A model generated the notes under the pieces. That model was not told the DNA's origin, did not search any database, and worked only from the letters and a program-made list of their open reading frames with translations. A program made the position numbers and the translations under genes. Below, piece by piece: positions 5,009-57,204 of a DNA stretch of 64,000 bases. How positions within the stretch are numbered: position 1 is the stretch's first letter; the number at the start of each line of letters is the position of its first letter. This DNA is from a virus. Its lineage: Duplodnaviria > Caudoviricetes. The DNA is taken from the IMG/VR virus record IMGVR_UViG_3300032007_000065, positions 1 to 64,000 of that record, one strand, 5' to 3'.

Positions 5009-7642
5009 ATGGCTCAGATAGTAAACACCAAACAGCGGCCCAGTGTCGGTTCGGACCCGTACCATAACGAACTGAACACAGCCGGCATCCCATTTGGAGA
5101 AAACCTTTACGACGACACCTACAACGACCATGATGAAGCCTACGTTAACTCGAAGTTGAAGAGTGATGACCAACAGAAGATGCCCGAGGCCATCGCCGAT
5201 AACTCAGCGACGCTAGTGGCTGCAGCAAAGAAAGTCTTTTCTAAACGTCGTCCAATCTACGACTGGAAAACGACAAATCAGAGCTTCATCGACGTCTATA
5301 ATGACCTGAAGCGACTCGGCATCAAGAATAACAAGTTCCATCTGATTCTCTACGATCGCGAACTTCAGGGAGTCGATCCATATGCACCCGGACTCCCTCT
5401 CGACATGCAGATTCGCATCTATCTCGAGTGTGTCGTCAACCCCTGGTATTTCATTCGTGAAATTGCGCGTATTCCGGCACAGGGTAAACCCATCGAACCC
5501 GGTGGCGGTGACCGATATAGACTCGACCGAAATAATCTAGCTACCTGGTATCTCTATGTGAACCACATTGACCACTACGCATCGAAGCCCCGTCAGTGTG
5601 GCAAGACACAGGATGCACTCCTGAAGGTCAACTATGCCTTCCACTTTGGTTCGGCATCGTCGAGTGCACTGCTGTTCTCGAAAGACCTCCCACTATGCAA
5701 AGAGAACCTGGCCCGTCTTAAAGATCAGAGAGACCTGTTTCCGACATACCTTCAGATGCGCGCGGCCTTCGACGAAGAGACTGGCAACATTGTCAAGGGT
5801 ATCGACAACATCATGACCATGAAGAATCCGGTAAATTCGAATTCTATCAAGGTCATGCCTTCTGCCAACTCTGCAGAAATGGCCACCCGACTCGGACGTG
5901 GTTACACTGCTCCGATCGAGTTCTTCGACGAAATTGACTTCACGAATTTCCAGATTAACATCCTGATGGCTTCGGTATTTGCCTATGCAACGGCATCGGA
6001 GAACGCCATCAACAATGGCTCGATGGCCTGCAGAGTGCTCTGCAGTACGCCAGGCGATTTGTCAACCCGAGACGGCAAAGCGATGTCTGACTACATCAAG
6101 GGCACGAAAGAAATGCGCGGCATGTTCATGTGGAACGACCGTTGCTTCGATCAGCCCATTGCGGACTTCAAGAAAGTCGTCCAGTCGACAGCTTACAATG
6201 GCATTGTCTACGTTGAGCATAACTGGCGTCAGTTGAAGAAGTCGATGGCCTGGTATGAGCGTCAATGCAACCTCTGCTCGTACAATCAGGAGATCATTCT
6301 TCGTGAAATCAATCTCCAGCGTCTGGCCGGTTCGAGCCTATCCCCCTTTACTCGTGAGCAGCAGCTGTATCTGGCTCAGCACGTTCACAGACCGAAACAG
6401 GAAATCGACATCAAGACGAAGGACACATTGTCGACGCTGTACCTCTATGAAGATCTTGACAGACGCATTCCGTACATCTTCGGCATTGACCCCTCTGAAG
6501 GTCTCAGTGCCGATAACAATGCACTCTGCATCATCAACCCATTCACGCTGGAAGTTGCTGGTGAATACTCGTGCCCATATATCTCACCTGTCGATATGAG
6601 TAAGATGCTAGTCAATCTCATGGATCGGTACTGCCCGAGAGCACTTCTGGTTGTGGAGGCGAACCGTGGTCGACAGTTGATCCAATACTTGGTCGATGGC
6701 CCGTATCAGTCGAGAGTCTGGTACGATGCCGACCGAATGAATCAGCTGCTGTCGGAGCATACGGACCAGTATGGTGGCATTCCACAGAGTGTCATCACCC
6801 GTAAGTGTCAGGGCTTCATTACCGGTGTCAAATCAAGAAACCTTCTGTTCCAGACCCTAGAGGAGATGGTCAACGAGTCCATTGACAAGATCTACTCGGC
6901 AAAGTTGGTTGGCGAGATTCTGACCCTCATCAGAAAACCGACGACCGGAAAGATCGAAGCTGCGCCAGGTGAGCACGACGATATGGTCATGGCCTATCTA
7001 ATCGGCCTCTACGTCTATCTCCATGCCAGCAATCTACACGAGTACGGCATGTCGAGACGAATGAGACCCGTCGACCAGATGGGTGTCAAGGACAAGGAGA
7101 CCGAGCAGAACTATCGATCCCGTGTGGCGGCTGCAGTCAACAGCCTTCCGGATGAGTATAAGGCCATCTTCGCAGACTATCTTCAGGAGCGAAATCCGGT
7201 CACCGATGCCCGACGATATGCCCAAGAAGTGGAACGAGCCAGACGACAGGATCCGTTCTACCGTCAAGCCACGACGTCGCAGTTCGACGATCCCGACGTC
7301 ATTCCGTTCGATGAACAGTTCAACCAGTCGAAACAGAATAATGGATCGCCACCGACGAACTACAAACCGATTGGCTACCAGTACCAGCGTTATGCCAACC
7401 GACAGTCTCAGGACGGCATCTACATTGGCGATGGCTCCGACGTCATGAACTTTGATGAACGCGAGAGCTTCGAGAACCAGATTTTCGACGCGAATCGAGA
7501 CCGCAGTGGTGGCATGATGCCCATTGAGACTGATCCGTACGAGAGTTTTGGATTCGCCCAGCCCGGTGGATTCGGCCCAGATGGAGACTCCATGTATCCG
7601 CCCGGATCTCTCGATCTCGACGACTGGACCGACCGATACTGA
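5009..7642 (+). CDS. terL: Terminase large subunit
   Basis: Walker A KPRQCGKT, Walker B FFDE, nuclease motifs IFGIDPSEG and HDDMVMA; 877 aa. Confidence 0.92.
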   Translation: MAQIVNTKQRPSVGSDPYHNELNTAGIPFGENLYDDTYNDHDEAYVNSKLKSDDQQKMPEAIADNSATLVAAAKKVFSKRRPIYDWKTTNQSFIDVYNDLKRLGIKNNKFHLILYDRELQGVDPYAPGLPLDMQIRIYLECVVNPWYFIREIARIPAQGKPIEPGGGDRYRLDRNNLATWYLYVNHIDHYASKPRQCGKTQDALLKVNYAFHFGSASSSALLFSKDLPLCKENLARLKDQRDLFPTYLQMRAAFDEETGNIVKGIDNIMTMKNPVNSNSIKVMPSANSAEMATRLGRGYTAPIEFFDEIDFTNFQINILMASVFAYATASENAINNGSMACRVLCSTPGDLSTRDGKAMSDYIKGTKEMRGMFMWNDRCFDQPIADFKKVVQSTAYNGIVYVEHNWRQLKKSMAWYERQCNLCSYNQEIILREINLQRLAGSSLSPFTREQQLYLAQHVHRPKQEIDIKTKDTLSTLYLYEDLDRRIPYIFGIDPSEGLSADNNALCIINPFTLEVAGEYSCPYISPVDMSKMLVNLMDRYCPRALLVVEANRGRQLIQYLVDGPYQSRVWYDADRMNQLLSEHTDQYGGIPQSVITRKCQGFITGVKSRNLLFQTLEEMVNESIDKIYSAKLVGEILTLIRKPTTGKIEAAPGEHDDMVMAYLIGLYVYLHASNLHEYGMSRRMRPVDQMGVKDKETEQNYRSRVAAAVNSLPDEYKAIFADYLQERNPVTDARRYAQEVERARRQDPFYRQATTSQFDDPDVIPFDEQFNQSKQNNGSPPTNYKPIGYQYQRYANRQSQDGIYIGDGSDVMNFDERESFENQIFDANRDRSGGMMPIETDPYESFGFAQPGGFGPDGDSMYPPGSLDLDDWTDRY

Positions 7643-7890
7643 TAGAAGAACGCAAGTGATCGATAGAGCACCCCGCTCTATCGATCGCTCATTCACTCTA
7701 TGTGGGTGCCTGCTTCGCATCGGCATCGGCATTTGCCGACATCGTGGTAACCGGTCGGGTCCCGAGTGAATTTAGGGATCTGTCCGTCATCAGTGTGTTG
7801 AAATCTAAATGTCCCGTTGACACAGAGTAAAGGCGGGAAATGTCGAGGTTTCAAGCTTAACGAAACTGATGAAAGGAGCAGAATGCTACT

Positions 7891-8628: not shown

Positions 8629-8702
8629 TCGGAGTCCGAGAAGAATAAACAGAAAAACTATCTCTAGCGGAATCTATTTCAAAGAAAGGTGTGGACACAC
8701 CC

Positions 8703-11399
8703 ATGGCAAAGATCATCAATGAATCGAACATGTACAGTCCCGCATCCGGGGTTTCCGAAATCAAGGAACCCCAGAATCTCAATGCTGTCAAGGACAGTGT
8801 CGAGACCTACAACATTCAGGCCAAAAAGGACCTGATGGAGACTCAGGAGGCACTTCAGAAGGAGGTCGAAGCCCATGCTGCCGGTGAACCGGAGCCCGGT
8901 GTCGGGAACACTGCTGGTGATGGAGAGCCGGCCGGCGACGGAGCCGTCGACACCGGAACCTCCGAAGCCGCCGACGAAAACGTCGCTGTGGCAGAGGATC
9001 GTCCGGCGACTGACGCCGAAGAGACGACGGAAGCCGACGAGAAACACGTCGCCGACGATCATGTATCTGGAGACGATGCCGGAGCCGCCGAAGGTTCCGG
9101 ATCTGACGCATCCGAAGTGCTGGTGAAGGGCTCCGAAGCGACGGCCGGCTACGTCGACGTCTCCAAAGACGCTGTCGAAAAAGCACTGAAGAACGACGAT
9201 GTTGTCCAGGAGCGCCCCATCCCCACCGAAGAGGAGCAGCGCGACATGAATCGGAAGGCCTTCGACGTGCTCAAGAAACTTCCGTACATCGACCTCTACA
9301 ACCAGCTCCAGGACGCTCAGAAGCAGGTCCACGAGCTCATCCAGATGCACGATGCCGTCGCCGCCTACAACGACGGAACGGCCGCATCGGTCATCGCTTC
9401 CATGAACGAAGCCGAACGCAACAAGTGGCTCGGCTCCGTCAAGGAGTTCCGTCAGAACTATCGCTCCACCTACGTCGACGGCCGCCGTCTCGTCAAGTTC
9501 ATTACGGCGATGCTCCAGTGCTACGACGGCACCAAGGTCAGCTCGACTTCGTTCATCTCGAAGTCCATGGTCGAGTCGGCCGAGATGCGTCGCGACGCCG
9601 TCGAACGTCGTGAGATCGAGAACGGCCGTGCCGACAACAAGGAGATTCTTCTCCGTCGCATCAACAACACCATCGCGGCCTATGCTGACCGCATCCACTA
9701 TCCGACCCTCATCAACAAGCTTCGCTATCCGAATAACATTCTCGAACTCTGGAAGACGTTCTTCAAGATCGGCCCCGAAGAGGTGCTGAAGATCGTCGAC
9801 CGTGTTCTGTCGAACCAGTTCAACGACGTCCACATGGCACGGTTCCGCAACGCCGTCCAGAACATGGTCATCTCCCACGAGACACCGGACTTCGACAAGA
9901 AGATCTCGAAGGACCGTCTCGGCGTCATCATCTTCTTCATGACCTACTGGCTGGCCACCGTCTACGAGAAGGAGTTCGAGTCCGGCAAGTGCGCTGAAGT
10001 CAAGACCTACATCATGTCGGTCTACGACTGTGACGTCAACAACCGCATCTACGACATGCCCGGTGGCCCGGCTCTCGTCGAGTCGTTCAGCTACCTGATG
10101 TTCACCATCTTCCTGGTCACCACCTCCGGCAGCTACAGCGTCAAGCAGCTGCACCGTGAGGTCGGCCGCATGTTCAACGACCTGCTGAAGGTCTACGACC
10201 AGGAGGAACAGGCCCAGATCGCCAAGTTCCCGGGCACCGCCGTGACAGAACCGACGAACTTCGAGTCGACCGTCGGCGGCAGCTTCGAAGACGTCGACGC
10301 CATGGTCGATTACAACGAGAGGATCCCCGGCGACGATGCTGCCGCTGGACCCGTCTACGAGCTGGTGAAACAGCTGCCCGACGAGTCCGATGTAGCACCG
10401 AACACCATCTACCTGAAGGAAATCGTCGGTGAAGATGGCGCCGAAGCCTACGAGCAGTGGACCGTCGACGAGCTCGGCTGGTCTCAGGGTGAGACCATCA
10501 CGAAACTCGACGGCGACCGCCTTCTCTACGGCGAGCTGCCCGAGACCGATGAAGTGGAATCCGGCGGCACGTCGGACTTCGTCTACCGCATCGTCAGGGA
10601 GCTGCCCTCTCCGGACGACATCTCCTTCAATCGTCGCACCATCTACGTTGTCAAGACCGATGACGATACCTATCGCCAGTACGTCTGGAAGGACGACGGC
10701 TTCAAAGAACTCGGCGACATCTCGGCTTCCGAAGCCAATGCTCTGACGGGCAACTACGACTACTTCGTCAAGGGCAACGGTGACAAGGCCGATGCTACGG
10801 AGGAGACGGCCGACTCCGACGCTGCGAAAGAGCCGGACGACTCTGACACTGTAGAGGAGTCGAGCGAGTGCTCCGGCGACAGCTGCCCCATCGTCTTCCC
10901 AGACGACGAAACCGAGACTGTTGTCACGGAAGAGCCTTCTCAGACGTCGGAAGATCCCGAGCCCGAGACACCCGTCGAAACCGGAAATGCTTCCGAAGAG
11001 CCGAAGGTCGAGACGTCACCCGAGCCCACCGAGAAACCGGCGTACATCATCGAAGAGACCAAGAAGCAGCCGGAAGTCGACTGTGTCGTCGACAACGACG
11101 ATCCCTGGGATCCGACGACGGCTGGCAATCCGGAGGTCCGCTACTGGATCCATAATGCCGACGGCAACTACACGCCGATGATGTACGACGGCAGCTGGAA
11201 GGTCTGCGGTGACGACGAGTCCCCTGACCGTGTCAAGGGTCTCCGTCACATCAGCAACGACTGGCCCGGCACATCGTTTGCTCCGGATCTCCCGGCGAAC
11301 ACCGTCGTCGTGGAGCAGCCGAAGGTCGAGCTGACTCAGCAGGCTCCGCGCGGCTTCGGCCAGATTCAGCAGCCTCCCCAGAGGCGTCCCGTTAACTGA
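8703..11399 (+). CDS. Large acidic protein with C-terminal fibre-type repeats
   Basis: ATG 8703; acidic low-complexity ends, helical core, repeats of V-x-x-LP...TIY...Y-x-Q-[WY]. Confidence 0.7.
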   Translation: MAKIINESNMYSPASGVSEIKEPQNLNAVKDSVETYNIQAKKDLMETQEALQKEVEAHAAGEPEPGVGNTAGDGEPAGDGAVDTGTSEAADENVAVAEDRPATDAEETTEADEKHVADDHVSGDDAGAAEGSGSDASEVLVKGSEATAGYVDVSKDAVEKALKNDDVVQERPIPTEEEQRDMNRKAFDVLKKLPYIDLYNQLQDAQKQVHELIQMHDAVAAYNDGTAASVIASMNEAERNKWLGSVKEFRQNYRSTYVDGRRLVKFITAMLQCYDGTKVSSTSFISKSMVESAEMRRDAVERREIENGRADNKEILLRRINNTIAAYADRIHYPTLINKLRYPNNILELWKTFFKIGPEEVLKIVDRVLSNQFNDVHMARFRNAVQNMVISHETPDFDKKISKDRLGVIIFFMTYWLATVYEKEFESGKCAEVKTYIMSVYDCDVNNRIYDMPGGPALVESFSYLMFTIFLVTTSGSYSVKQLHREVGRMFNDLLKVYDQEEQAQIAKFPGTAVTEPTNFESTVGGSFEDVDAMVDYNERIPGDDAAAGPVYELVKQLPDESDVAPNTIYLKEIVGEDGAEAYEQWTVDELGWSQGETITKLDGDRLLYGELPETDEVESGGTSDFVYRIVRELPSPDDISFNRRTIYVVKTDDDTYRQYVWKDDGFKELGDISASEANALTGNYDYFVKGNGDKADATEETADSDAAKEPDDSDTVEESSECSGDSCPIVFPDDETETVVTEEPSQTSEDPEPETPVETGNASEEPKVETSPEPTEKPAYIIEETKKQPEVDCVVDNDDPWDPTTAGNPEVRYWIHNADGNYTPMMYDGSWKVCGDDESPDRVKGLRHISNDWPGTSFAPDLPANTVVVEQPKVELTQQAPRGFGQIQQPPQRRPVN

Positions 11400-13034: not shown

Positions 13035-13433
13035 ATGAGTGAAGCTTTGCTAATGCAGAGCGCTGGATTTGGTGGTTCTACGACTAACCTAAAGATGGCT
13101 ACAAGTTATACGTATACTGATCGGAACGGTAATTGGTATAGTGCATCATTGTCACTGTCGGCACCGGGGAGTTTTGCATGTGGTGTATCGAGTTGGGTAA
13201 ACAATAGTCAATATGGCTGCTCGTGTGGCAATGGTTATACGCCTATTATGTCATCTGGTCAAAGTTCGAATTATACCGCATTATGGGTTTGGTCTTCCAA
13301 TAGTTCATCTATCTCTAATATAGTTGGATCACGGGAGTTTAGTGGGTACTGGGCTTCATATAATGGCACAACGTTTACATTTGGTCAACTTACAAATTTT
13401 AGTCAACTGATGACAGTCGTTGTTTATATTTGA
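13035..13433 (+). CDS. AT-rich small Ser/Gly/Thr/Tyr-rich protein (cassette-family member 1)
   Basis: MSEALLMQSAGFGG... (132 aa) after GGAGG; A/T-ending codons unlike its neighbours. Confidence 0.75.
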   Translation: MSEALLMQSAGFGGSTTNLKMATSYTYTDRNGNWYSASLSLSAPGSFACGVSSWVNNSQYGCSCGNGYTPIMSSGQSSNYTALWVWSSNSSSISNIVGSREFSGYWASYNGTTFTFGQLTNFSQLMTVVVYI

Positions 13434-21513: not shown

Positions 21514-24279
21514 TCAGATGTTGAGGTTCAGGTCTTCACCCTCGCCACCGGCGGGCTGTTCAGCTCCAGCTTCGGGTGCTCCGGGTTCCGGCGCTTCATC
21601 CATTCCGGGGATTCCGGAGACGACGTCGTCGGGGTTCTCGACCTTGGCCATTTCGTTCATGGCTTCGACGGTCTGTTTCTTGACCTTGTCACCCATAACT
21701 TCGGCCACTGCCTGTTCATAGAGGTCATCGAGGTTGTCCCAGTCGAGGAACGGCACCTCGCGACGAACGATCTTTTCGGTGTATACGGACTTGATGCGCA
21801 TGTCGGCCGGTTCACTCTTGTCTTCGCCGACCTTAACGTTGGCCAGCATCTGGGCGTTCTGGTAGGCGGTGCCGAGGGCTTCGGAGTTATTCTGGTTCGC
21901 CAGAATCCTGGGCCTCGGCAGTTTCACCTGCAGGGTACCAACGACGAGATTCTTCAGAGTGTCGTCCATGTCGGAGTCTCGGACCAGACAGCGATAGAGT
22001 TCCGTCAGGGGCTCTTCGAAGTCGCTCTGGAGAGATGCTACACGTCCGGCCACTTTGATGTTGTCGGAGACGATCTTCTTGGCAACTTCGACATTCGACT
22101 CGTAGTCCATGGCCGTCGGCGGAATGCCGGTGGCTAGGATGCCCCAGCGTTCCAGCATCTGTTCGTAGTCCGTCGACAGGTTGATGTCCTGACCCTCCTG
22201 GGTCTCAAAGTCGACGAGTCGATTGCCGGACAGATCCTTCGGCATTGCAATGTTCGAGTCTCTGGTAATCTTCGAGAACACCATGGAGCTCGACAGAAGG
22301 TCGGTGAACGTGACGTTGCCGGCCTGGAGGTCTCGGATGACGCGGTTCACCTGATTCGACAGGGACTTCGTCACCTTACCACTCGAGATGTGGGCGATGG
22401 TCTTGTTGCCACCTTTGTTGATGTAGTTCAGCATCTTGGTGATGACGATCGACAGCAGCAGATGGGCCGGGAACATGGCCTCCGACAGAATCGATTCGCC
22501 GTGGCCGTTCTCGTCTTCGTTGCACTTGAACTCGATCATGTTGTCGACGGGAATGAACTGGATCATGTAGTCGTTGTCAACGAGTCCATTGGCAATGATG
22601 CACTCGGCGATGAGCTGCTTGAAGGCAGCATTCTTTTTGACGAACTTCACCGAGAACTGGTCGATGATGGCACCGGAGATGCTGTCGACGATGTTCTGGA
22701 TGGCGTCCTGTTTCTTCTTCTCGGAGATGTCCATCTGGTCGAAGAGAGACATGGAGGCGCCGGTCAAGATGCCGCCAATCTCGGTGCCGTGGCCACCGGT
22801 CTTGGAGCCGCGGCCGCGACGTTTCCGATTCTTCGGTGTCGCGATGACGTGGTAGTAGCCGACCCGCTGGCCAAGTACCTCGATGGGGATGACGTACTTG
22901 TAGTCGATCCACTTCAGATAGGTGCCGGAGACGCCGTCGAAGTTCTGGCCGCGACGACGGTTCGTCGGATCGTCGGGGTCGACGGTGCCGTCGGGGACTC
23001 TGTCGTCGTAGGACCTCGGCGCATTCGCCACGTCAGCCTTCGACTTGGTCGACTCCCGGTAGTCCTTTCGGAGATTGAAGAAGTCGTTGTAGCCCTCCAT
23101 GGCAATGGTGGCCGTGTCGTCGATGGCCGAGAACATGATCGGCGAATCGATGAAGTAGAAGTTCGGCATGTCGGCTTCAATAGCGCCGACGAGCTTCTTC
23201 GAGAACTCCTCTGCGGTGACGGCGTTTCCGTCCTGGTCACGGCCGAATCGAGTCGCCTGTTCAATGGCACCGGAGACGGCGTCACGAATCAGGGTGCTGT
23301 CGAGGTCGGCCTTGTAGACGAATCCGTCTCGGGCCAGGTACTTCATTTCGGAACCGAAGTTCTCGAAAGCCGGTTCGAAGCCGAACTGTTGGATTGGGCG
23401 CAGCGGAGCGACGTATCCTTCAAAGGCTTCACTGAGGCCGGCGTTCTGTTGGGACTCCTGGGCGATGCCGAGGACATTTGGCTTCGAGGGCTTGCGTCCG
23501 TTGCCGCCGGCGATGGTGCCGGGACTGTCGTGGGGGTCTCCCATGCGGGCATTCGTCGTCTGCTGGGCGCCGAGCTTCGTGATCTTTCCTTCGGCGAGGC
23601 CTCGGCTGTACATGCCAAAGAGCTCCGTGTAGGGAATGTGGTAGACATAGAAGGATCCGGTCACCAGTGTCTTGCGGATGGCGACCTTGACCTTACGCTG
23701 GATCTTGTACTGGTCCTCCAGGGTCTCGATGGCCTTTGTAGCGAGACGAAGCGAGTTGTCGTCGGAGATGCCGGGGATCAGCAGGTTTCGTGTAATGGTC
23801 TGAGAGACGTCGTCCGACGAGACAATGGCATCGAGATAAATGCGCACGGCCTCGCCCAACGACGGGATGAATTTCGAAATGAACTTCAGATCGGACACTT
23901 CGAGATAGCGATTCTTGTGGATGTCCTGGAAGTATCCGAAGATCTCGCCGACGTTCTGTGTGAATAGGTCGGCAGTGTCGACGGACGGTGCCCGATTTCC
24001 GCCACGCGGGCGAATCCGTTTGCCGTCCTGCTGCGCCCGGATGGACGCGATGAAGTCGACGATCTGGTTGCCGGCGACGCCCTTGGCGACGTCGAGCTGT
24101 CGGTCGATGACACGCTGGAATTCGGCATCCTGCTCCGACAGCAGCTTCCGGTCGGTGTACGTGGGGTCGGTGGCCTGCAGCACTCGGTTGACGGCCCGGT
24201 CGAGCAGCGATGCTCTCTTCATGGCCTGGTTGTACTGCTGACTACTCATCGACTCCTGAATATCTTTATCGTCGGGCAT
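21514..24279 (-). CDS. Portal protein (putative)
   Basis: 921 aa; GESILSEAMFPAHLLLSIV...NYINKGGNK and GIPPTAMD resemble T4 gp20-type portal segments; located in the virion gene region. Confidence 0.65.
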   Translation of the reverse strand: MPDDKDIQESMSSQQYNQAMKRASLLDRAVNRVLQATDPTYTDRKLLSEQDAEFQRVIDRQLDVAKGVAGNQIVDFIASIRAQQDGKRIRPRGGNRAPSVDTADLFTQNVGEIFGYFQDIHKNRYLEVSDLKFISKFIPSLGEAVRIYLDAIVSSDDVSQTITRNLLIPGISDDNSLRLATKAIETLEDQYKIQRKVKVAIRKTLVTGSFYVYHIPYTELFGMYSRGLAEGKITKLGAQQTTNARMGDPHDSPGTIAGGNGRKPSKPNVLGIAQESQQNAGLSEAFEGYVAPLRPIQQFGFEPAFENFGSEMKYLARDGFVYKADLDSTLIRDAVSGAIEQATRFGRDQDGNAVTAEEFSKKLVGAIEADMPNFYFIDSPIMFSAIDDTATIAMEGYNDFFNLRKDYRESTKSKADVANAPRSYDDRVPDGTVDPDDPTNRRRGQNFDGVSGTYLKWIDYKYVIPIEVLGQRVGYYHVIATPKNRKRRGRGSKTGGHGTEIGGILTGASMSLFDQMDISEKKKQDAIQNIVDSISGAIIDQFSVKFVKKNAAFKQLIAECIIANGLVDNDYMIQFIPVDNMIEFKCNEDENGHGESILSEAMFPAHLLLSIVITKMLNYINKGGNKTIAHISSGKVTKSLSNQVNRVIRDLQAGNVTFTDLLSSSMVFSKITRDSNIAMPKDLSGNRLVDFETQEGQDINLSTDYEQMLERWGILATGIPPTAMDYESNVEVAKKIVSDNIKVAGRVASLQSDFEEPLTELYRCLVRDSDMDDTLKNLVVGTLQVKLPRPRILANQNNSEALGTAYQNAQMLANVKVGEDKSEPADMRIKSVYTEKIVRREVPFLDWDNLDDLYEQAVAEVMGDKVKKQTVEAMNEMAKVENPDDVVSGIPGMDEAPEPGAPEAGAEQPAGGEGEDLNLNI

Positions 24280-24349
24280 TGGTTTTCACCACCTTGTGAT
24301 TTTCGACGTATTAACCCGATGTTTCCGAGCCAGTATCCTACGGGACCTG

Positions 24350-24391
24350 AGCGAAAAGTCTCGAATTTCGGCCACATATAATTCTAGTGAG
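24350..24391 (+). promoter_or_regulatory. Stable-RNA-type promoter, copy 1
   Basis: agcgaaaagtctcga-N7-ccacatataattct-N-gtgag; same blocks and spacing at 30632. Confidence 0.8.
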
Positions 24392-24405
24392 AAAACATGG
24401 AGAAA

Positions 24406-24478
24406 CATACCGAAGTTCTAGTGGTGGAACGCAAGTCCAGAAAACTTGAGGTTGTCGGTTCGAGTCCGGCCGGTGCGG
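24406..24478 (+). tRNA. tRNA-like gene, anticodon AGA (Ser?), atypical or pseudo
   Basis: Acceptor cataccg/cggtgcg (one mismatch), D stem gttc/gaac, anticodon stem caagt/acttg with loop cc-aga-aa, T arm gtcgg-ttcgagt-ccggc; no encoded CCA. Confidence 0.7.
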
Positions 24479-24533
24479 GGCGCAAGCTCCGCGCTATGTT
24501 TTCTTGCTAGTGAATCTTCTTTTTTGTTGCTGG

Positions 24534-24580
24534 GGAACGACTGCTGTTGGCACCGTAAGAGTTTTGTCGTTTCATTTTCA
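24534..24580 (+). repeat. Cassette-associated hairpin site S1
   Basis: ggaacgac-t-GCTGTTG-gcaccg-TAAGAGt-ttt-GTCgtttc-attttca. Confidence 0.85.
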
Positions 24581-24593
24581 CAATATCTTCATC

Positions 24594-24968
24594 ATGAGCA
24601 ATGCACTTCTGGCGATGTCCGGCCCAGCTTTCGGCAATATGGATGTTACTGTCTACGATGTCTACACAGTTACATCTAGCGAGAATCTTGTATCATCTAG
24701 CAACGCCATCACGATTTTCTCCAATCGCTCATGGACCTGGGCGTTTGTGGATATGCAGAATGCGGGTATAATGATAGCGAGACCATTTGCTATCAAGAAT
24801 TCAGTCAATTTTCAAGACAAGCAAATTTATGGGTTGCAGGGCAATAGTACTACTAGTTTCAATGTAACACTGATTGGCACATCTACTAGTCTACGGGGCG
24901 GGATGATGCCATATACCAATGCCCCATATTACTTCTGGACAATCACCGTCTATGTTCCATCTGCATAA
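24594..24968 (+). CDS. AT-rich cassette protein A (124 aa)
   Basis: MSNALLAMSGPAFG...WTITVYVPSA; no SD; 51 nt after the S1 core start. Confidence 0.75.
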   Translation: MSNALLAMSGPAFGNMDVTVYDVYTVTSSENLVSSSNAITIFSNRSWTWAFVDMQNAGIMIARPFAIKNSVNFQDKQIYGLQGNSTTSFNVTLIGTSTSLRGGMMPYTNAPYYFWTITVYVPSA

Positions 24969-25012
24969 CTCATCGCTGTTGCGTCGTAAGAGCTTCAGTC
25001 GTTTCATTTTCA
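24965..25012 (+). repeat. Cassette-associated hairpin site S2
   Basis: ataact-catc-GCTGTTG-cgtcg-TAAGAGc-ttca-GTCgtttcattttca; overlaps the stop of cassette A. Confidence 0.85.
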
Positions 25013-25024
25013 ACTTTCTTCTCT

Positions 25025-25363
25025 ATGGCAGATTCTCTTGGCACTTTCTGCATTGCCTCGGCCGGCAGCGGATCGACAACTGTGACTCTGGTCGCAAGTG
25101 GAGCAGCATCAGGCGGCACATCTGTTACTCTATCATCGGCGGCAGTATTCGTCATGTGCCGACCAATAACATGGTATGGGGCATCCATAACGTCTAGCAC
25201 ACTATGCGTGATCGCTGGAGGGCGGGCGACTGCAGGCTATGATCATCCAGGTGGCGTTACTTATCAGGCGACTGCATCATTAGCTTCTTCTGGAACTACA
25301 CTAACCCTGGGAAATTGGACCGGTGGTTATACCGCAACTTGGGAGTACAATGCATTTGCATGA
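25025..25363 (+). CDS. AT-rich cassette protein B (112 aa)
   Basis: MADSLGTFCIASAGSG...TWEYNAFA; no SD; 50 nt after the S2 core start. Confidence 0.75.
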   Translation: MADSLGTFCIASAGSGSTTVTLVASGAASGGTSVTLSSAAVFVMCRPITWYGASITSSTLCVIAGGRATAGYDHPGGVTYQATASLASSGTTLTLGNWTGGYTATWEYNAFA

Positions 25364-25492
25364 CCGCCGTCACATACCCGACCGAAGATGTGCGAGCCGA
25401 GCCTGGTCGACATGCCGGGGTCTGAAGGCCGCGAAAAAATCCGCCCGGTGGGCGGCGCGGCGCGCCTTCCGCTCCCTTCGGTCGCGCTTTTT

Positions 25493-25522
25493 AGAGACGA
25501 ATTGCTGGTGCAATTCGTCTCT
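25493..25522. terminator. Hairpin/terminator between convergent genes
   Basis: agagacgaattgc-tggt-gcaattcgtctct. Confidence 0.7.
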
Positions 25523-25527
25523 TGATG

Positions 25528-26454
25528 TTACTGCAGTTTCTTTTTGAGTGTGTCGATCTCGGTGTTGAGCTCGGCGATGTATCGATTGATGTCGTAGAGA
25601 CTCCTGGACAGATTCGCAGTCTTGGCTTGGAGCAATTCAATGGATGCCATGACTTCAGCTTTATCGATGACATCCTGGTTCGGCTCTTCGATAGGCTCGT
25701 CGAATGTCAGGACGGCATCGATGATGCGAGTGGTGCTCGTCAGCTTGCTGATGCCGAGATCTGGGCACTTGAAGATGAAGGATCCGCCACCATCGAGTTT
25801 GATGATGTCTCGGAACCCAGCTCCTTTGATCTGGTTGAAGAACTCCATACCGTAGATGAGGTTACCGGTCTTCGATTGGTAGTACATGACGTAGACCATT
25901 GACGGGTCATCTTTGACACCGACGAAGACATGGTATGCCGCTCTGACGGTGTCCTTGGCCCAGCCCTGAGGTAGCACGTAGTTGTAGAACGACACGTCGT
26001 CACCATTCCGAAGCACCGGCACACCGGAGACGGCATAGTCGGCATTTTCGTGCCCAGTGAGGTATTCGGTGTCTTTGATGGTCGCCTTCCCGTTCTCGAT
26101 GAAGAGAGTCGACGGCGCATGGCCGTAGCAGGGATTCATGTACTCCCATTTACCACTGTCGAAGGTGAACTTCCGGCCGTCGTTGGAGATCTTGCCGCGC
26201 TCGTGCATGTAATGCTCTTCGATGTCGTGGAGTTTGAAGCCGGGATAGATGTCGCATTTCAGATGGCCCGCCGGAAGACGGAACTCGATACCTTTCTCTT
26301 CGTAGTATCCGAAGAAGTTGGCATTGCAGAAGTTGCCGTCTCGAGTGACGTCGCCGCCGGTCCGCTTCTCACGATCGAGCCAGACGACCTTCAGCATGGA
26401 GGCCGGCATCTCGACAATGGTGACGTCGTTGTACATGTAAGTCTTCTTCAGCAT
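25528..26454 (-). CDS. Phosphodiester glycosidase (NAGPA-like) protein with C-terminal coiled coil
   Basis: CNANFFG, AVSGVPVLRNG, RAAY..VG, KLDGGGS; ATG 26454 after GAAAGGAG. Confidence 0.8.
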   Translation of the reverse strand: MLKKTYMYNDVTIVEMPASMLKVVWLDREKRTGGDVTRDGNFCNANFFGYYEEKGIEFRLPAGHLKCDIYPGFKLHDIEEHYMHERGKISNDGRKFTFDSGKWEYMNPCYGHAPSTLFIENGKATIKDTEYLTGHENADYAVSGVPVLRNGDDVSFYNYVLPQGWAKDTVRAAYHVFVGVKDDPSMVYVMYYQSKTGNLIYGMEFFNQIKGAGFRDIIKLDGGGSFIFKCPDLGISKLTSTTRIIDAVLTFDEPIEEPNQDVIDKAEVMASIELLQAKTANLSRSLYDINRYIAELNTEIDTLKKKLQ

Positions 26455-26480
26455 AGATTCGGCTCCTTTCGACTTGATTA

Positions 26481-26525
26481 TGGGATTGCTTGCTGTTGCC
26501 TGGTAAGAGCTTTGTCGTACCATTC
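26481..26525 (+). repeat. Cassette-associated hairpin site S3
   Basis: tgggattgc-tt-GCTGTTG-cctgg-TAAGAGc-ttt-GTCgtaccatt. Confidence 0.85.
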
Positions 26526-26542
26526 TACGCGATTCAATTTAT

Positions 26543-26830
26543 ATGGCCAATGCGCTTCTTGCTGCCGGGGTTATTGAGAGCTCTGACCATGATTTATTAA
26601 CTGCACATCAAGGATATGGGACTAGAGATAATCCACTTTTTACATCATCGTCGACTGCTCTCCTTGGAATATTCACTCCTTTCTTTGGTTACTGCATACC
26701 GGTAATAAATGCTCCAGGAAATACCATTGCGACTCCAGAGGGGCAGTGTCAAATTGTATGGAATATCTCTGGACAATGTACTGCTCAAGGCAGTTTTTCA
26801 GATACTATCTATTGGGTATATATCGAGTGA
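26543..26830 (+). CDS. AT-rich cassette protein C (95 aa)
   Basis: MANALLAAGVIES...TIYWVYIE; no SD; 51 nt after the S3 core start. Confidence 0.75.
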   Translation: MANALLAAGVIESSDHDLLTAHQGYGTRDNPLFTSSSTALLGIFTPFFGYCIPVINAPGNTIATPEGQCQIVWNISGQCTAQGSFSDTIYWVYIE

Positions 26831-26867
26831 CTTGCTGTTGCACACTAAGAGCTTTGTCACACATTCA
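26827..26867 (+). repeat. Cassette-associated hairpin site S4
   Basis: gtgac-tt-GCTGTTG-cacac-TAAGAGc-ttt-GTCac-acattca; the TGA stop of cassette C lies in the left arm. Confidence 0.85.
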
Positions 26868-26881
26868 CATACTACTATACA

Positions 26882-27262
26882 ATGGCAGAATCTCTCATCT
26901 CGGCAAGCATCTCGGCCGGAGGATCTAATGCGAATATTTCTCTCATCGCATCTGGCTCATTTTATGTATATACCAGATCACAAACGATTTCTTTTTCTAA
27001 TGGCTTATTTGCAGTAATATTTAGCAACCATGCACGCAATGGCTGGAATAGTAACGAAGCGATGGAACCGGGATATGCCGTGGTATTTGCTGGAGACACT
27101 GGTATATCGACACCACCATATCGTTATGCCAATGGTACGGCTGTTGATACTAGCGCTAAGGCATCCATGACCACTAGTACATTGACAATCGGTGCTGTCA
27201 TAACTGGAAATTGGCAAGAAACGTATTATCAAAAGTCTGGTACATACCGAATTGTCGGATGA
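26882..27262 (+). CDS. AT-rich cassette protein D (126 aa)
   Basis: MAESLISASISAGGS...GTYRIVG; no SD; 48 nt after the S4 core start. Confidence 0.75.
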   Translation: MAESLISASISAGGSNANISLIASGSFYVYTRSQTISFSNGLFAVIFSNHARNGWNSNEAMEPGYAVVFAGDTGISTPPYRYANGTAVDTSAKASMTTSTLTIGAVITGNWQETYYQKSGTYRIVG

Positions 27263-27394
27263 CTGACCCGGGGAAGGCCCGAAAGGAGCCAGCTTTTAAG
27301 GGTATCAGCCGCGGGCGCGACGGGTTCGCGCAGTTTACGTTTTAATGTACCACAGAGACAGACACCTATCTAAACGAATCGAGTTGTCTAAGGA

Positions 27395-28195
27395 GTGATC
27401 CAATTGGCACTTAATTTCGGAGACTACATCGCGAATCCCTATGGAAAGGGAACGGGAATCGTACCGTCGAACGTCATCCGATCGAACATCGAGAACGAGA
27501 CGGCGACGATGTACCCGGCTCCCATTCGATTCAAGGCCTACAAAGCTCCCCACCAACATCTGGTGCTGCACTGTAAGCTGCCGTCACGTACGAAGAATGA
27601 CGTCTTCTACGACATCGTCATGGACTTCGACCTGGCCCCGGGTTTCGAGACCAGACGGGCCATCACGAAGTACGACTGTACCGTCTTCTCGAACTCTCCA
27701 TCGTTCTACTACACCTATGCCAAGGTGTTCCGGGAGAAGGGAGCACTTTGCCCCTGGCTCCAGAAGAAGTACGAACGCCAGATCATGAAGAAGAGTCCGG
27801 AGAAACGGAATCCATCGAACATTATCGGCTACGAGCGAACGCTCTACACCGGCATGTGGGTGACGATGCAGCAGACGAGAGGCCGCAGTGCGCGAGACCT
27901 CTACGATAATGCACCGGAAATGACCTACAAGGAGCTGGCGAAGCTCGTTCAGTCCCAGGACGAAATCGAGACCGCCTACGAGAAGGCCCCGTACACCGCT
28001 CGGGAGCAGGCCCGCCGCAACGACATCGAACAGCGGAAGCTGCTACGGCAGAACCTCGGCCCGAAACGGCCGCTGAAACCGAAGACCACGGCACCGACGT
28101 CGTCGACTGTCCAGAGAACTTCGACGACCCAGAAGACAAAGAAGACGAGTCTCTTCTCGAAGATTCGCCACACGACGAAGACGAAGAAGATATGA
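27395..28195 (+). CDS. Hypothetical protein with basic C-terminal tail
   Basis: GTG start after AAGGAG; 266 aa; typical codon usage. Confidence 0.75.
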   Translation: MIQLALNFGDYIANPYGKGTGIVPSNVIRSNIENETATMYPAPIRFKAYKAPHQHLVLHCKLPSRTKNDVFYDIVMDFDLAPGFETRRAITKYDCTVFSNSPSFYYTYAKVFREKGALCPWLQKKYERQIMKKSPEKRNPSNIIGYERTLYTGMWVTMQQTRGRSARDLYDNAPEMTYKELAKLVQSQDEIETAYEKAPYTAREQARRNDIEQRKLLRQNLGPKRPLKPKTTAPTSSTVQRTSTTQKTKKTSLFSKIRHTTKTKKI

Positions 28196-28259: not shown

Positions 28260-30443
28260 ATGCCCAGAAAGCCGAAAGCTGCCGAAGCTACGGCAACCGA
28301 AACTGAAGTGATCCCCACCGTCGAACCGATTCCCGCGGATGACAAACCAGCTCCGGATCCCGTCCTCGTCGACGCCACCATCCGGTCCCACGGCCTCTAT
28401 CCAAACTTTCGGTTCGACCCGAATGCAAAAGACAGCTACGAAGAGCAGGTCGTCCACAGCTGGTGGTTCCAGAACATCGAGAACTGCATGAGAATCATGA
28501 TCGACGACGGCTGGTACATCGAGAACTCGGAGACACCGTCGACCCTGGAAGAAGCCAGACCGGTGTTCGACCGGGTCTTCAAGTCCAGCGTCCCCATCGA
28601 CGACGAGCTGCTGGCGACGGCACTGCTGAACCACAGAATCCAGGTGTCGCCGAATCCGCCGAAACGTCGCCGCCGTGGTGGTCTGAAACCGCCGACTCCG
28701 GTCGACATTGCGGACGTCGTCTCCATTAAGGATGTCATGGCAGCAACGCCGGTCGGCGAACCAGTGTCCATCAAGCCGCTCATCGACCCGAAAACGAAAC
28801 TTTCGCAAATCGACATCTTCGACAACGTCGAGAATGCTGACAACGCCATCACATACAAGATCCCGGAAGACCCCTTCGAGGTGTCCGACGACGACAATGA
28901 GCCCATCATCCTGAAGGGGCGCGGTGGCTTCGTCGATCGGCCCGACAGCTTCAACATGATGACCTGGATCCCGCTGCCGGAGCAGACGTTCTTCGTCGAG
29001 AAGGATGGCATGATCGTGGCCCAGTACCTCGTCAACAGGTTCAACGTCCCGGAGGACCGCCACCTGTTGGAGTACATCATCGCCAAGAAGCACTATAAAG
29101 AGCGCATTCCGGATCTGATCCAGCACATCAACTACTTCGAGTCGTTCTATGACCATGACCATGAGTACCTTGTGTCGACACTGGCGACGAAGGACTACAT
29201 TGACCATCACCCGACGATGACCCAGAAGGCCTTCTGTCGTATGGTCGATGTCCGCATCATCACGCCGACCTTGGTCCGTAAGGTGAAGCACATGGCCCTA
29301 GATCTCTATCGACTCAACATCAACACTGACAAGGACGGCAAGTACAAGACGACGCCGAAGATCACCAATGACCATGCCCGCATGATTGTGGCGGTTTCCT
29401 TCTGCATCCGTCTCATCCTGCCTCTCTGCATCCATTTCTCGAACACCAATGCCACGTTCATCAACAAACGTGACTACATCGACTGCTTCGACCGCATTTT
29501 CATGAAGGTGGTCCAGAAGTTCGAAAAGAATGACACCGAGATCTGGAACCCTATCTGCCGCTTCGTCGCCTATCGCGTCGAGCGTTCCCAGACGACCGAT
29601 GCCGTCATCTGGGAAAAGAAGAAGCAGCTCTACGGCACCACCATGGAACTGTATCTCGAGACTCTGATTCACGAGGTTATCCTGGTGAAGTCTCTCCACA
29701 AGCTGGCATACAACCGGTCCATCGTGTCGTTCATCGATGGCATCATCACCCATTCGTACATGCACTACCGCTACGAAAACTTCAAGTTCAAACCCGTCGA
29801 AATCGAGAACGAAGACTCGGACTCCGACGACTATCTGAGCCACGTCGAGGCACTGGAGATGCAAATCTCTCGTGTTGACGAGAGCAATCAGCTGGTCAAC
29901 GAGACGAACATCGCCCAGGTCATGGCATCTCTCGAGAAACGGTTCAACGTCCCTATTGCAGAGGGAGAGCTGGAGTTCTACGTTGAAAACATCCACTTCA
30001 ACTCCCTGATGCAGTCGTTCCTGCATGCCTTCTTCTCGAAGTACTTCAACGACACCAACGCCATCCGCCTGCTGGATCGTCGTCGGTCTGCTCAGTTGGC
30101 ACTGTACCTGAAGAAGTATCTGCAACTCCGTGGTATGGTCATCCTGCCGCAGATCTGCACCGCCCGTGTTCACGGCAAGTTCAAGGACACCTGCATCAAG
30201 AACGCCAAGTTTCTCGAGAAGTTCACGACATCGAGCGTCTATCAGCACATCATCGCCGACAAGTATCGCTACATCGCCGAACTCCATCTGAAGGAGGACC
30301 CGATCGTCAAGATGCTGTCGACTATGCTGAATTCGAGCTTCGAGTTCTGTGACTTCGACCCCGAGATCAACGGACGCGTCGCCGAAGAGTTCGACACCGA
30401 CATGCTGGTGTCTGAATTCATGACGTTCCTGTCGATCTGCTGA
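28260..30443 (+). CDS. Large helical protein, candidate promoter-specificity subunit of non-virion RNAP (AR9 gp226/phiKZ gp68-like)
   Basis: CDS is solid (727 aa, AAAGGAG); the family assignment rests on recalled resemblance only. Confidence 0.4.
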   Translation: MPRKPKAAEATATETEVIPTVEPIPADDKPAPDPVLVDATIRSHGLYPNFRFDPNAKDSYEEQVVHSWWFQNIENCMRIMIDDGWYIENSETPSTLEEARPVFDRVFKSSVPIDDELLATALLNHRIQVSPNPPKRRRRGGLKPPTPVDIADVVSIKDVMAATPVGEPVSIKPLIDPKTKLSQIDIFDNVENADNAITYKIPEDPFEVSDDDNEPIILKGRGGFVDRPDSFNMMTWIPLPEQTFFVEKDGMIVAQYLVNRFNVPEDRHLLEYIIAKKHYKERIPDLIQHINYFESFYDHDHEYLVSTLATKDYIDHHPTMTQKAFCRMVDVRIITPTLVRKVKHMALDLYRLNINTDKDGKYKTTPKITNDHARMIVAVSFCIRLILPLCIHFSNTNATFINKRDYIDCFDRIFMKVVQKFEKNDTEIWNPICRFVAYRVERSQTTDAVIWEKKKQLYGTTMELYLETLIHEVILVKSLHKLAYNRSIVSFIDGIITHSYMHYRYENFKFKPVEIENEDSDSDDYLSHVEALEMQISRVDESNQLVNETNIAQVMASLEKRFNVPIAEGELEFYVENIHFNSLMQSFLHAFFSKYFNDTNAIRLLDRRRSAQLALYLKKYLQLRGMVILPQICTARVHGKFKDTCIKNAKFLEKFTTSSVYQHIIADKYRYIAELHLKEDPIVKMLSTMLNSSFEFCDFDPEINGRVAEEFDTDMLVSEFMTFLSIC

Positions 30444-30631: not shown

Positions 30632-30673
30632 AGCGAAAAGTCTCGATTTTAATCCACATATAATTCTTGTGAG
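30632..30673 (+). promoter_or_regulatory. Stable-RNA-type promoter, copy 2
   Basis: agcgaaaagtctcga-N7-ccacatataattct-N-gtgag, matching 24350-24391. Confidence 0.8.
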
Positions 30674-49164: not shown

Positions 49165-49392
49165 ATGTCAAAAGAAGATATGATTGAACTCGAGGGCACG
49201 GTCATCGACAAGCTGCCCGGAGGAAAGTTCAAAGTGAAGGCGAAGCTCGGCGACACCGAGATTGAAACGGTCTGTCAGCCGTCGGGCAAGCTCCGCACCA
49301 ACTACATCAGGATTCTCATCGGAGACCGCGTCAACGTCGACGTGTCTCCCTATGACCTGAGCAAGGGTCGCATCACCTGGAGGTACAAGTGA
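49165..49392 (+). CDS. infA: Translation initiation factor IF-1
   Basis: [13 protein letters not shown]...[34 protein letters not shown]. Confidence 0.95.
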
Positions 49393-56820: not shown

Positions 56821-57204
56821 TTAGAAATAGATAACAGTGCACGGAGAAAAGAAATAAGTAGTGCCGTAGTTATAAACATATGACTGTGTTACACCAGTTG
56901 AAGTCACTGTAAATGAGCACGAAATAGTTGCAATACTTGTACCATTGAAGTATACTATAGTACACGTGCCACTGCTTCCTGCCATAACAACACAGCCACC
57001 ATGTCCCGGATATATTGTAGCTCTAGAATCGGCATAGCATCCAGTACAAATGCAGACTGCTGCAGAAATACCAGTCGCATTGGATACGCATGTACGTGAT
57101 GTAGAAGCTCGCTCTGAATAGCCATCGCAAGATACTGCACCAATAGTTGCAGCACTATTTCCACTCACGTCACTGTCGAATCTCAAAGCTAATCCTTCAC
57201 TCAT
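56821..57204 (-). CDS. AT-rich small protein (cassette-family member 6)
   Basis: MSEGLALRFDSDVSG...PCTVIYF (127 aa); alternative start at 57279 has an SD 12 nt upstream. Confidence 0.7.
   Translation of the reverse strand: MSEGLALRFDSDVSGNSAATIGAVSCDGYSERASTSRTCVSNATGISAAVCICTGCYADSRATIYPGHGGCVVMAGSSGTCTIVYFNGTSIATISCSFTVTSTGVTQSYVYNYGTTYFFSPCTVIYF

Follow-up and report, generated by a model that had tools for sequence, protein, structure and literature searches.

A conserved block repeated ahead of four small, fast-diverging genes of an AR9/PBS1-like jumbo phage: a possible promoter/operator-plus-leader cassette

The first 64 kb (the window) of the 77.9-kb IMG/VR virus record IMGVR_UViG_3300032007_000065 contains a conserved block of ~45 nt in four copies, each of which precedes the start codon of a small gene from one paralogous, fast-diverging family. 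We propose that the block is a DNA-level promoter/operator-plus-leader cassette, analogous to the promoter-early stem-loop (PeSL) regulatory cassettes of T4-like phages (PMC2839356, PMC4122927) and adapted to a phage with RNA polymerases of its own; we give this reading a probability of about one half. The completeness of the record is ~32% according to CheckV. The sequence places the phage, which is uncultured, among the AR9/PBS1-like jumbo phages: its portal is ~25% identical to that of AR9/PBS1, and one of its proteins is homologous to gp226, the promoter-specificity subunit of AR9. By habitat it is a giant rumen phage, and the sequencing runs that contain the stretch come from bovine, sheep and goat gut samples. 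In AR9-like jumbo phages, control of genes outside the two promoter classes is barely known. If the block is a promoter/operator, it would be a third, cluster-specific control element in these phages, and recombination-handle regulatory cassettes would extend beyond T4-like phages.

The pattern GCTGTTG-N(4-8)-TAAGAG has four exact matches (24543, 24975, 26492 and 26834), all on the plus strand, against 0.00 in the shuffled-sequence control. No fifth copy was found by pattern across the 77.9-kb record, and a covariance model of the four copies recovered no additional one in 135 kb made up of the phage (78 kb) and a relative (58 kb). Pattern scans of viral contigs gave single unrelated hits only, at about the number estimated for chance, and 28 single hits, scattered over unrelated taxa, came from prokaryote genomes. 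The blocks (S1 to S4), the leaders behind them and the genes that they precede (A1, B1, A2 and B2) are, all on the plus strand:

24532-24579 (+): block S1, core 24543-24562; found by pattern match, covariance-model hit (53.1 bits) and fold; possible 8-bp outer stem of GGAACGAC with GTCGTTTC
24570-24593 (+): leader of A1, G-free and without a Shine-Dalgarno (SD) site
24594-24968 (+): gene A1, 124 amino acids (aa); open reading frame and family alignment; third-position GC 0.46
24964-25011 (+): block S2, core 24975-24993, starting 6 nt past the A1 stop codon; no real outer stem
25002-25024 (+): leader of B1, likewise G-free and SD-less
25025-25363 (+): gene B1, 112 aa; open reading frame; homologue P0004
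26481-26527 (+): block S3, core 26492-26510; its bottom strand reads GACA-N7-TA and AACA
26518-26542 (+): leader of A2, likewise G-free and SD-less
26543-26830 (+): gene A2, 95 aa; open reading frame and family alignment
26823-26868 (+): block S4, core 26834-26852, starting 3 nt past the A2 stop codon; possible 5-bp outer stem of GTGAC with GTCAC
26860-26881 (+): leader of B2, likewise G-free and SD-less
26882-27262 (+): gene B2, 126 aa; predicted beta-sandwich

The conserved block consists of GCTGTTG(G)C, three bases that vary freely, (G/C)TAAGAG(C/T)TT, GTC(G/A) and CATT, and every copy ends 30-33 nt before the ATG of its small gene. An imperfect inverted repeat makes up the core, with G-G mismatched at the centre and G-T as the terminal pair in each of the four copies, and encloses a centre of five or six bases (GCACCG, CGTCG, CCTGG and CACAC in S1 to S4). 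Further downstream, the 3' part of the block groups by unit, GTCGTTTCATTTTC being common to S1 and S2 and CTTGCTGTTGC to S3 and S4, unlike the N-terminal codons of the genes, which group by A/B gene type.

The block is a real, selected cis element and not a neutral relic, because its core is 71-83% identical among the copies while the gene bodies, compared from codon 11, are at shuffled-level identity (0.51-0.64, against 0.51-0.60 for shuffled sequence). It is very improbable that the copies are a functionless remnant of tandem duplication, kept similar by gene conversion while the gene bodies were driven apart or swapped. The different grouping of 3' parts and N-terminal codons does suggest local exchange, and the block occurs in one cluster only; however, besides the gap in identity between block and gene bodies, the block is kept in two diverged strains, its distance to the ATG is constant within 3 nt, and the leaders retain a property (no G) and not a sequence.

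The initial annotation had interpreted the repeat as a covarying hairpin. The core pairing itself, with the G-G mismatch and the G-T pair in four copies and the loops listed above, was confirmed. The loops, described as varying freely, have the sequences given, but they are partly constrained: a C at the loop start and a G at its end are conserved, in three of four copies. Covariation is not supported. Five of the six inner pairs are invariant and the remaining one changes on one side only. The outer stem, for which covariation had been claimed as well, forms a helix that is 64.5% paired and whose covariation score equals that of shuffles (reached by 271 of 500). Reading by hand gives an outer stem of 8 bp in S1, 3 bp in S2, 2 bp in S3 and 5 bp in S4, and the stems of S1 and S4 differ by two compensatory pairs; flank shuffling gave p values of 0.064, 0.53, 0.41 and 0.08 for S1 to S4 (~0.09 by a Fisher combination calculated by hand). 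The minimum-energy RNA fold corresponds to the proposed hairpin for S1 and S4 only (z -0.4 to -1.25), and as single-stranded DNA (ssDNA) the copies reach -3.2 to -5.0 kcal/mol (z -0.8 to +0.1), with the proposed fold in S4 only. The core hairpin is worth -2.4 to -5.2 kcal/mol and is not followed by a T-run. As to the claimed preference for the sense strand, the plus strand folds better in all four 47-48-nt segments and in three of four 65-68-nt windows, a difference for which a T/G-rich plus strand suffices. That the element is conserved and tied to the sense strand does hold. An Rfam check (Rfam 15, positions 24000-27500, E up to 1) returned only the tRNA and one small-RNA hit at chance level. 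Since the arms are invariant and the centre is variable, the 'stems' and 'loop' look like a pair of protein-recognition boxes around a spacer, not like an RNA stem.

Two classes of promoter-like motif were found in the phage. The first, CC[AG][CT]ATATCAT (or ATATAAT), occurs at ~16 sites near gene starts (e.g. 11474, 37886, 48319 and 57306 on the plus strand, 52899 and 1992 on the minus strand), resembles the AT-rich AR9 early consensus (PMC5312081) and is, on its sequence, probably the early class used by the virion polymerase. Its ATATAAT variant, with ~40 nt of common upstream sequence, is present at 24376, ahead of a tRNA-like gene, and at 30658, ahead of a second short unit. The second, late-type motif, [AG]ACA-N6-TA, lies 19-33 nt before an SD site and start codon at eight genes and accounts there for 9 of 24 genome sites (e.g. 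2032, 4979, 12016, 13462, 27361 and 31983 on the plus strand, 24323 and 33779 on the minus strand, in the form [AG]ACA(C)-N6-TAA). The relative has it at its own portal and p266 orthologues. The motif matches the AR9 late consensus AACA-N6-TA/G (PMC5312081, PMC9209446); an AR9-type late promoter is defined by [AG]ACA spanning -11 to -8, with TA or TG at -1/+1. In AR9 such promoters are read by the non-virion RNA polymerase with gp226 (PMC5312081, PMC5449584, PMC9209446). Genome-wide depletion of [AG]ACA-N6-TA is void as an argument for promoter function, as the N3-N10 spacings are all depleted; the positional argument stands.

Upstream of the four small genes the sense strand shows neither class: over the 110 nt next to the ATGs the late profile scores 2.8 at best, whereas the eight training sites score 14.2-20.2. 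A consensus scan of the blocks for sigma-70-like promoters likewise found no qualifying -35/-10 pair; by eye, TTGnnn-16/17-TTTCAT can be read, but S1 and S2 lack the A that is essential as the second base of the -10 box. Resemblances to sigma-54, ECF and MotA-box promoters, also seen by eye, each fit one to three copies only and were dropped. The surroundings of the blocks are as follows:

21514-24279 (-): portal gene, the product ~25% identical to the AR9/PBS1 portal
24406-24478 (+): tRNA-like gene, anticodon AGA, with an early-type promoter (ATATAAT core from 24376)
24472-24495: terminator-like hairpin directly upstream of S1
25528-26454 (-): inverted gene of 308 aa with a good SD site, separating the two gene pairs; an 88-nt divergent gap, in which S3 lies, divides it from A2
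28260-30443: gene for the gp226-like subunit, adjoining the small-gene cluster

S1 is thus preceded by the tRNA-like gene and then by the terminator-like hairpin. Because S1 follows this hairpin and S3 lies in a divergent gap, a promoter is needed at both, and upstream of their small genes the block is the only conserved sequence available. Its layout, TGTTG-five bases-TAA, mimics the ACAC-five bases-TAA of the late class. In our proposal, the block would head a small expression cassette in front of each paralogue. The two invariant 7-mers, together with the TTTGTCG and CATT boxes, would be recognition boxes in double-stranded DNA, the imperfect dyad representing back-to-back protein-binding boxes, and would make up a cluster-specific promoter and/or operator for the phage transcription machinery. 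The transcription start may fall within the block or directly behind it. A start at the TAA of TAAGAG predicts a G-free, SD-less leader of 35-38 nt, and a start at the GTC[G/A] purine one of 23-26 nt; leader lengths counted from such a start are similar to those of the late-promoter genes. A leader of this kind would require SD-independent translation. At S3, the bottom-strand GACA-N7-TA and AACA boxes would probably also fire leftward, into the 308-aa, glycosidase-like gene, and the repeated block may in addition serve as the homology patch at which related phages exchange gene bodies.

Several observations weigh against this proposal. We infer the promoter function, the start site, the leftward firing and the recombination role; RNA run X4, which contains a small share of the stretch, has two contigs there, within B2 and the 308-aa gene, and these are uninformative on start, strand and transcription. 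On the sense strand the block matches neither phage promoter class nor the sigma-70 scan. A general promoter class should recur, yet the block is limited to one paralogue cluster in ~32% of the genome, and the paralogues at 13035-13433 and 56821-57204 are without it. Conservation continues for ~25 nt beyond where a -10-like box could plausibly lie, and on the bottom strand the promoter-like site has an invariant spacer; therefore, more than a minimal promoter is under selection. Finally, two features agree with what a sense-strand structure predicts: the wobble pairs all lie on the sense strand, and the single stem substitution in S1 keeps pairing (G-C to G-T). At the corresponding position, moreover, the relative has a small hairpin whose two copies differ by one compensatory change.

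These last points favour an element acting in RNA, a weak G-G hairpin in the 5' leader or inter-cistronic RNA that controls SD-independent translation, the hairpin being read by a phage or host protein or setting mRNA stability or processing. Such a role is possible, though we consider it doubtful. It gains from the better folding of the plus strand in four of four segments and from the two compensatory pairs between the outer stems of S1 and S4. The genes concerned fit as well: as the initial annotation had noted, they lack SD sites, and they are the worst four of 57 genes for anti-SD complementarity, being alone in having none at all, while most phage genes carry GAAAGGAG-type SD sites. Their leaders are G-poor (2 G in 94 nt over the four, against 27% G genome-wide), a constant 30-33 nt separates block and ATG, and the phage encodes a homologue of translation initiation factor 1 (IF-1). 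Against it, invariant stems around a variable loop are the opposite of what a structured RNA typically shows, covariation does not exceed that of shuffles, folding is weak by z score and by core energy with the hairpin as minimum-energy fold in two of four copies, Rfam holds no match, and no recognisable promoter upstream of S1 or S3 would include the block in an RNA. An RNA operator or SD substitute is thus less likely than a DNA-level promoter/operator cassette. The narrower version, a sense-strand RNA operator in which the weak G-G hairpin and the G-free leader recruit ribosomes or a phage factor for SD-less initiation, and which acts only on the hypervariable beta-sandwich family in a phage whose other genes have strong SD sites and which has its own IF-1, seems unlikely to us. 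If true, a jumbo phage would have a translation-initiation signal specific to one class of its genes; an RNA-acting block of either kind would mark a set of mRNAs translated without SD sites in an otherwise SD-dependent phage.

The bottom strand offers another explanation, that the main function of the block is to provide a leftward AR9-type late promoter. Here TAAGAGCTTTGTC reads GACAAAGCTCTTA, that is GACA-N7-TA, in S1, S3 and S4, and GCTGTTG reads CAACAGC. Only 20 genome sites match GACA-N7-TA, three of them in the blocks, and other N7 sites precede the genes starting at 8691, 40161 and 66203. At S3 the site is 50 nt upstream of the start codon of the minus-strand 308-aa gene, which has no other recognisable promoter, and AR9 itself has antisense and off-spacing late promoters (PMC5312081). 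Leftward transcripts from S3 and S4 would serve the glycosidase-like gene, and antisense RNAs would run over the upstream small genes. However, S2 has GACT and a longer spacer, a sensible leftward target exists at S3 only, and the N7 spacing is one off the canonical N6 of AR9, with N5 in the equivalent of the relative. The spacer is invariant in the block, whereas canonical late promoters vary there; the fixed distance is to the downstream plus-strand ATG, with nothing fixed on the left; and we estimate a ~5-10% chance of such a match in a 45-nt block. Leftward transcription as the main function is therefore quite improbable in our view.

Comparison between strains bears on the proposed exchange of gene bodies. 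In contigs of two other runs, S1 to S3, the leaders and the first codons align at ~90-96%, while the gene bodies are replaced by unrelated sequence of similar length. The 308-aa gene is ~90% conserved in two other strains, in which its small neighbours are swapped. The replaced spans run from 24668/24676 to 24951, from 26540 to 26607 or 26873, and from 26922 to 27272, and in one strain S4 lies inside the replaced stretch 26540-26873. Some breakpoints fall at block edges (24951, 26540 and 26873) and others inside coding sequence (24668/24676 and 26922), in a sample of two strains. Such a mosaic is what homologous exchange at conserved flanks would produce, as has been shown for the PeSL cassettes of T4-like phages (PMC2839356, PMC4122927).

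The initial annotation had raised the alternative of an ssDNA recombination substrate. In such a reading the folded ssDNA would be an attC-like substrate for site-specific recombination, or another enzyme target, by which the small genes move as cassettes. Like integron attC sites, the block is an imperfect inverted repeat with a variable centre, here carrying a mismatch, between small variable genes, and gene bodies have been replaced with breakpoints near block edges. The AAC...GTT flanks mentioned in its favour are present in S1 and S2, but they are absent from S3 and S4, and their contexts (GGGGAAC/GTTTCAT and CATAACT/GTTTCAT) are off consensus. No testable defining feature of attC was found: at ~45 nt the block falls short of the 57-141 nt of attC sites, it lacks R and L boxes (RYYYAAC/GTTRRRY), it has a 1x1 G-G mismatch where no base is bulged or extrahelical, and as ssDNA it is not stable, folding no better than shuffles. 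It is positioned by the downstream start codon and not by the 3' end of a cassette, and the breakpoints inside coding sequence fit homologous exchange. No integrase was found in the 77.9-kb record (~32% of the genome), where the tyrosine recombinase family PF00589 had no match; the sole resolvase-like hit was sub-threshold, in an antisense frame of another gene, and spurious. Of all explanations considered, a dedicated recombination site is the least probable, and by a reading of this evidence highly so.

The promoter/operator cassette that we favour has its closest parallel in PeSL. Both involve a short composite motif, repeated before non-core genes in a variable region (here four blocks and four hypervariable paralogues), and an inverted repeat within or beside promoter boxes. 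Gene replacements in close relatives are bounded by the motif in PeSL, where exchange takes only short homology and no dedicated recombinase; here the breakpoints lie partly at block edges and partly inside coding sequence. They differ in that PeSL has a sigma-70-like early promoter, whereas no such promoter in the block passed the scan, and a stable GC-rich terminator stem-loop, whereas the hairpin of the block is weak and without a T-run; moreover, the phage studied here uses its own multisubunit RNA polymerases, and the genes behind the block are without SD sites. The likeness to AR9 late promoters lies in the gp226-like subunit, in the use of [AG]ACA-N6-TA before many genes, and in the architecture of the block (a 4-5-nt box, a 5-6-nt spacer and TAA, with GACA-N7-TA on the bottom strand). 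In contrast, the sense-strand box is TGTT(G) and not [AG]ACA, with scores of 2.8 or less against 14-20, and ~45 nt are conserved where the AR9 consensus specifies six bases.

The promoters of the phage N4 virion RNA polymerase, a single-subunit enzyme, are small DNA hairpins with specifically recognised stem and loop bases; their stems measure 5-7 bp and their 3-nt loop is conserved. The block differs from them in its varying loop and mismatched stem; no search for such a polymerase was made.

Searches with the gp226-like, portal and 308-aa proteins identified one real relative only (G001/L124), whose gp226-like protein is 73% identical; another match, a 1.1-kb metagenome contig, is 99.9% identical and adds nothing. 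No further relatives were found in prokaryote genomes or, by DNA, among GenBank phages, and no homologues of the 308-aa protein in viral contigs. Between portal and p266, the relative carries two small members of the same family. Upstream of each, a small hairpin is followed by TGTTCG, a perfect 19-bp terminator-like hairpin with a T-rich run, and an AT-rich, SD-less leader. The small hairpins (ATGCC-AGTAA-GGCAT and AGGCC-TGTAA-GGCCT) differ by one compensatory pair, and the module has GTAAG..GC..TGT(T)CG in common with the block, although the hairpin register differs. A hairpin family (GGTACTACGG.. / ..CCGTAGTACC) occurs in the relative at four intergenic places within 3.9 kb (5820-5859, 6258-6297, 7843-7878 and 8907-8944) and looks like a shared terminator module.

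The four small proteins form one highly divergent family, with two more members in the record and the two in the relative, all with an N-terminus of the type M-[SA]-[EDN]-[SA]-L. A profile search of 1.8 billion proteins gave seven hits only, and a protein atlas search gave no usable lead. The model of B2 is a beta-sandwich (mean predicted local distance difference test score, pLDDT, 76). Its fold search returned weak hits of the tail-fibre kind (best viral E = 8e-4, template modelling score ~0.47) and no match in the PDB. As small beta-sandwich proteins that are rapidly swapped between strains, the family members are candidates for host-surface interaction. Third-position GC is 0.30-0.46 in the small genes, against 0.7-0.85 in typical genes of the phage, and codons ending in A or T are favoured, unlike in the remaining genome. 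The block-less members at 13035-13433 (+) and 56821-57204 (-) also have low third-position GC and an MSE(A/G)L N-terminus; the former has a normal SD site, and its upstream region keeps an GTTCGTAATTCATTTT remnant resembling the 3' part of the block. The 308-aa protein has a weak match to NAGPA (phosphodiester-glycosidase; E = 0.024, under the Pfam cut-off), and its C-terminal part looks helical by eye.

The window also encodes a tail sheath, and no synteny with AR9 was found around the portal. A Pfam scan of 55 window proteins identified thymidylate synthase, dihydrofolate reductase, dCMP deaminase, thymidylate kinase, a divergent family-B DNA polymerase, an NAD-dependent ligase, two GNAT acetyltransferases and an SfsA-like nuclease. 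The IF-1 homologue (75 aa, 49165-49392, plus strand) exceeds the cut-off of PF01176 with E = 9e-17; IF1 genes are known in huge phages (PMC7162821), and any connection to the SD-less small genes is speculation. The slot of the small genes carries tRNA-like genes in both phages, at 24406-24478 in the window and at 7003-7078 and 7902-7987 in the relative, where one is Leu-TAG and the other odd, with a four-base anticodon call.

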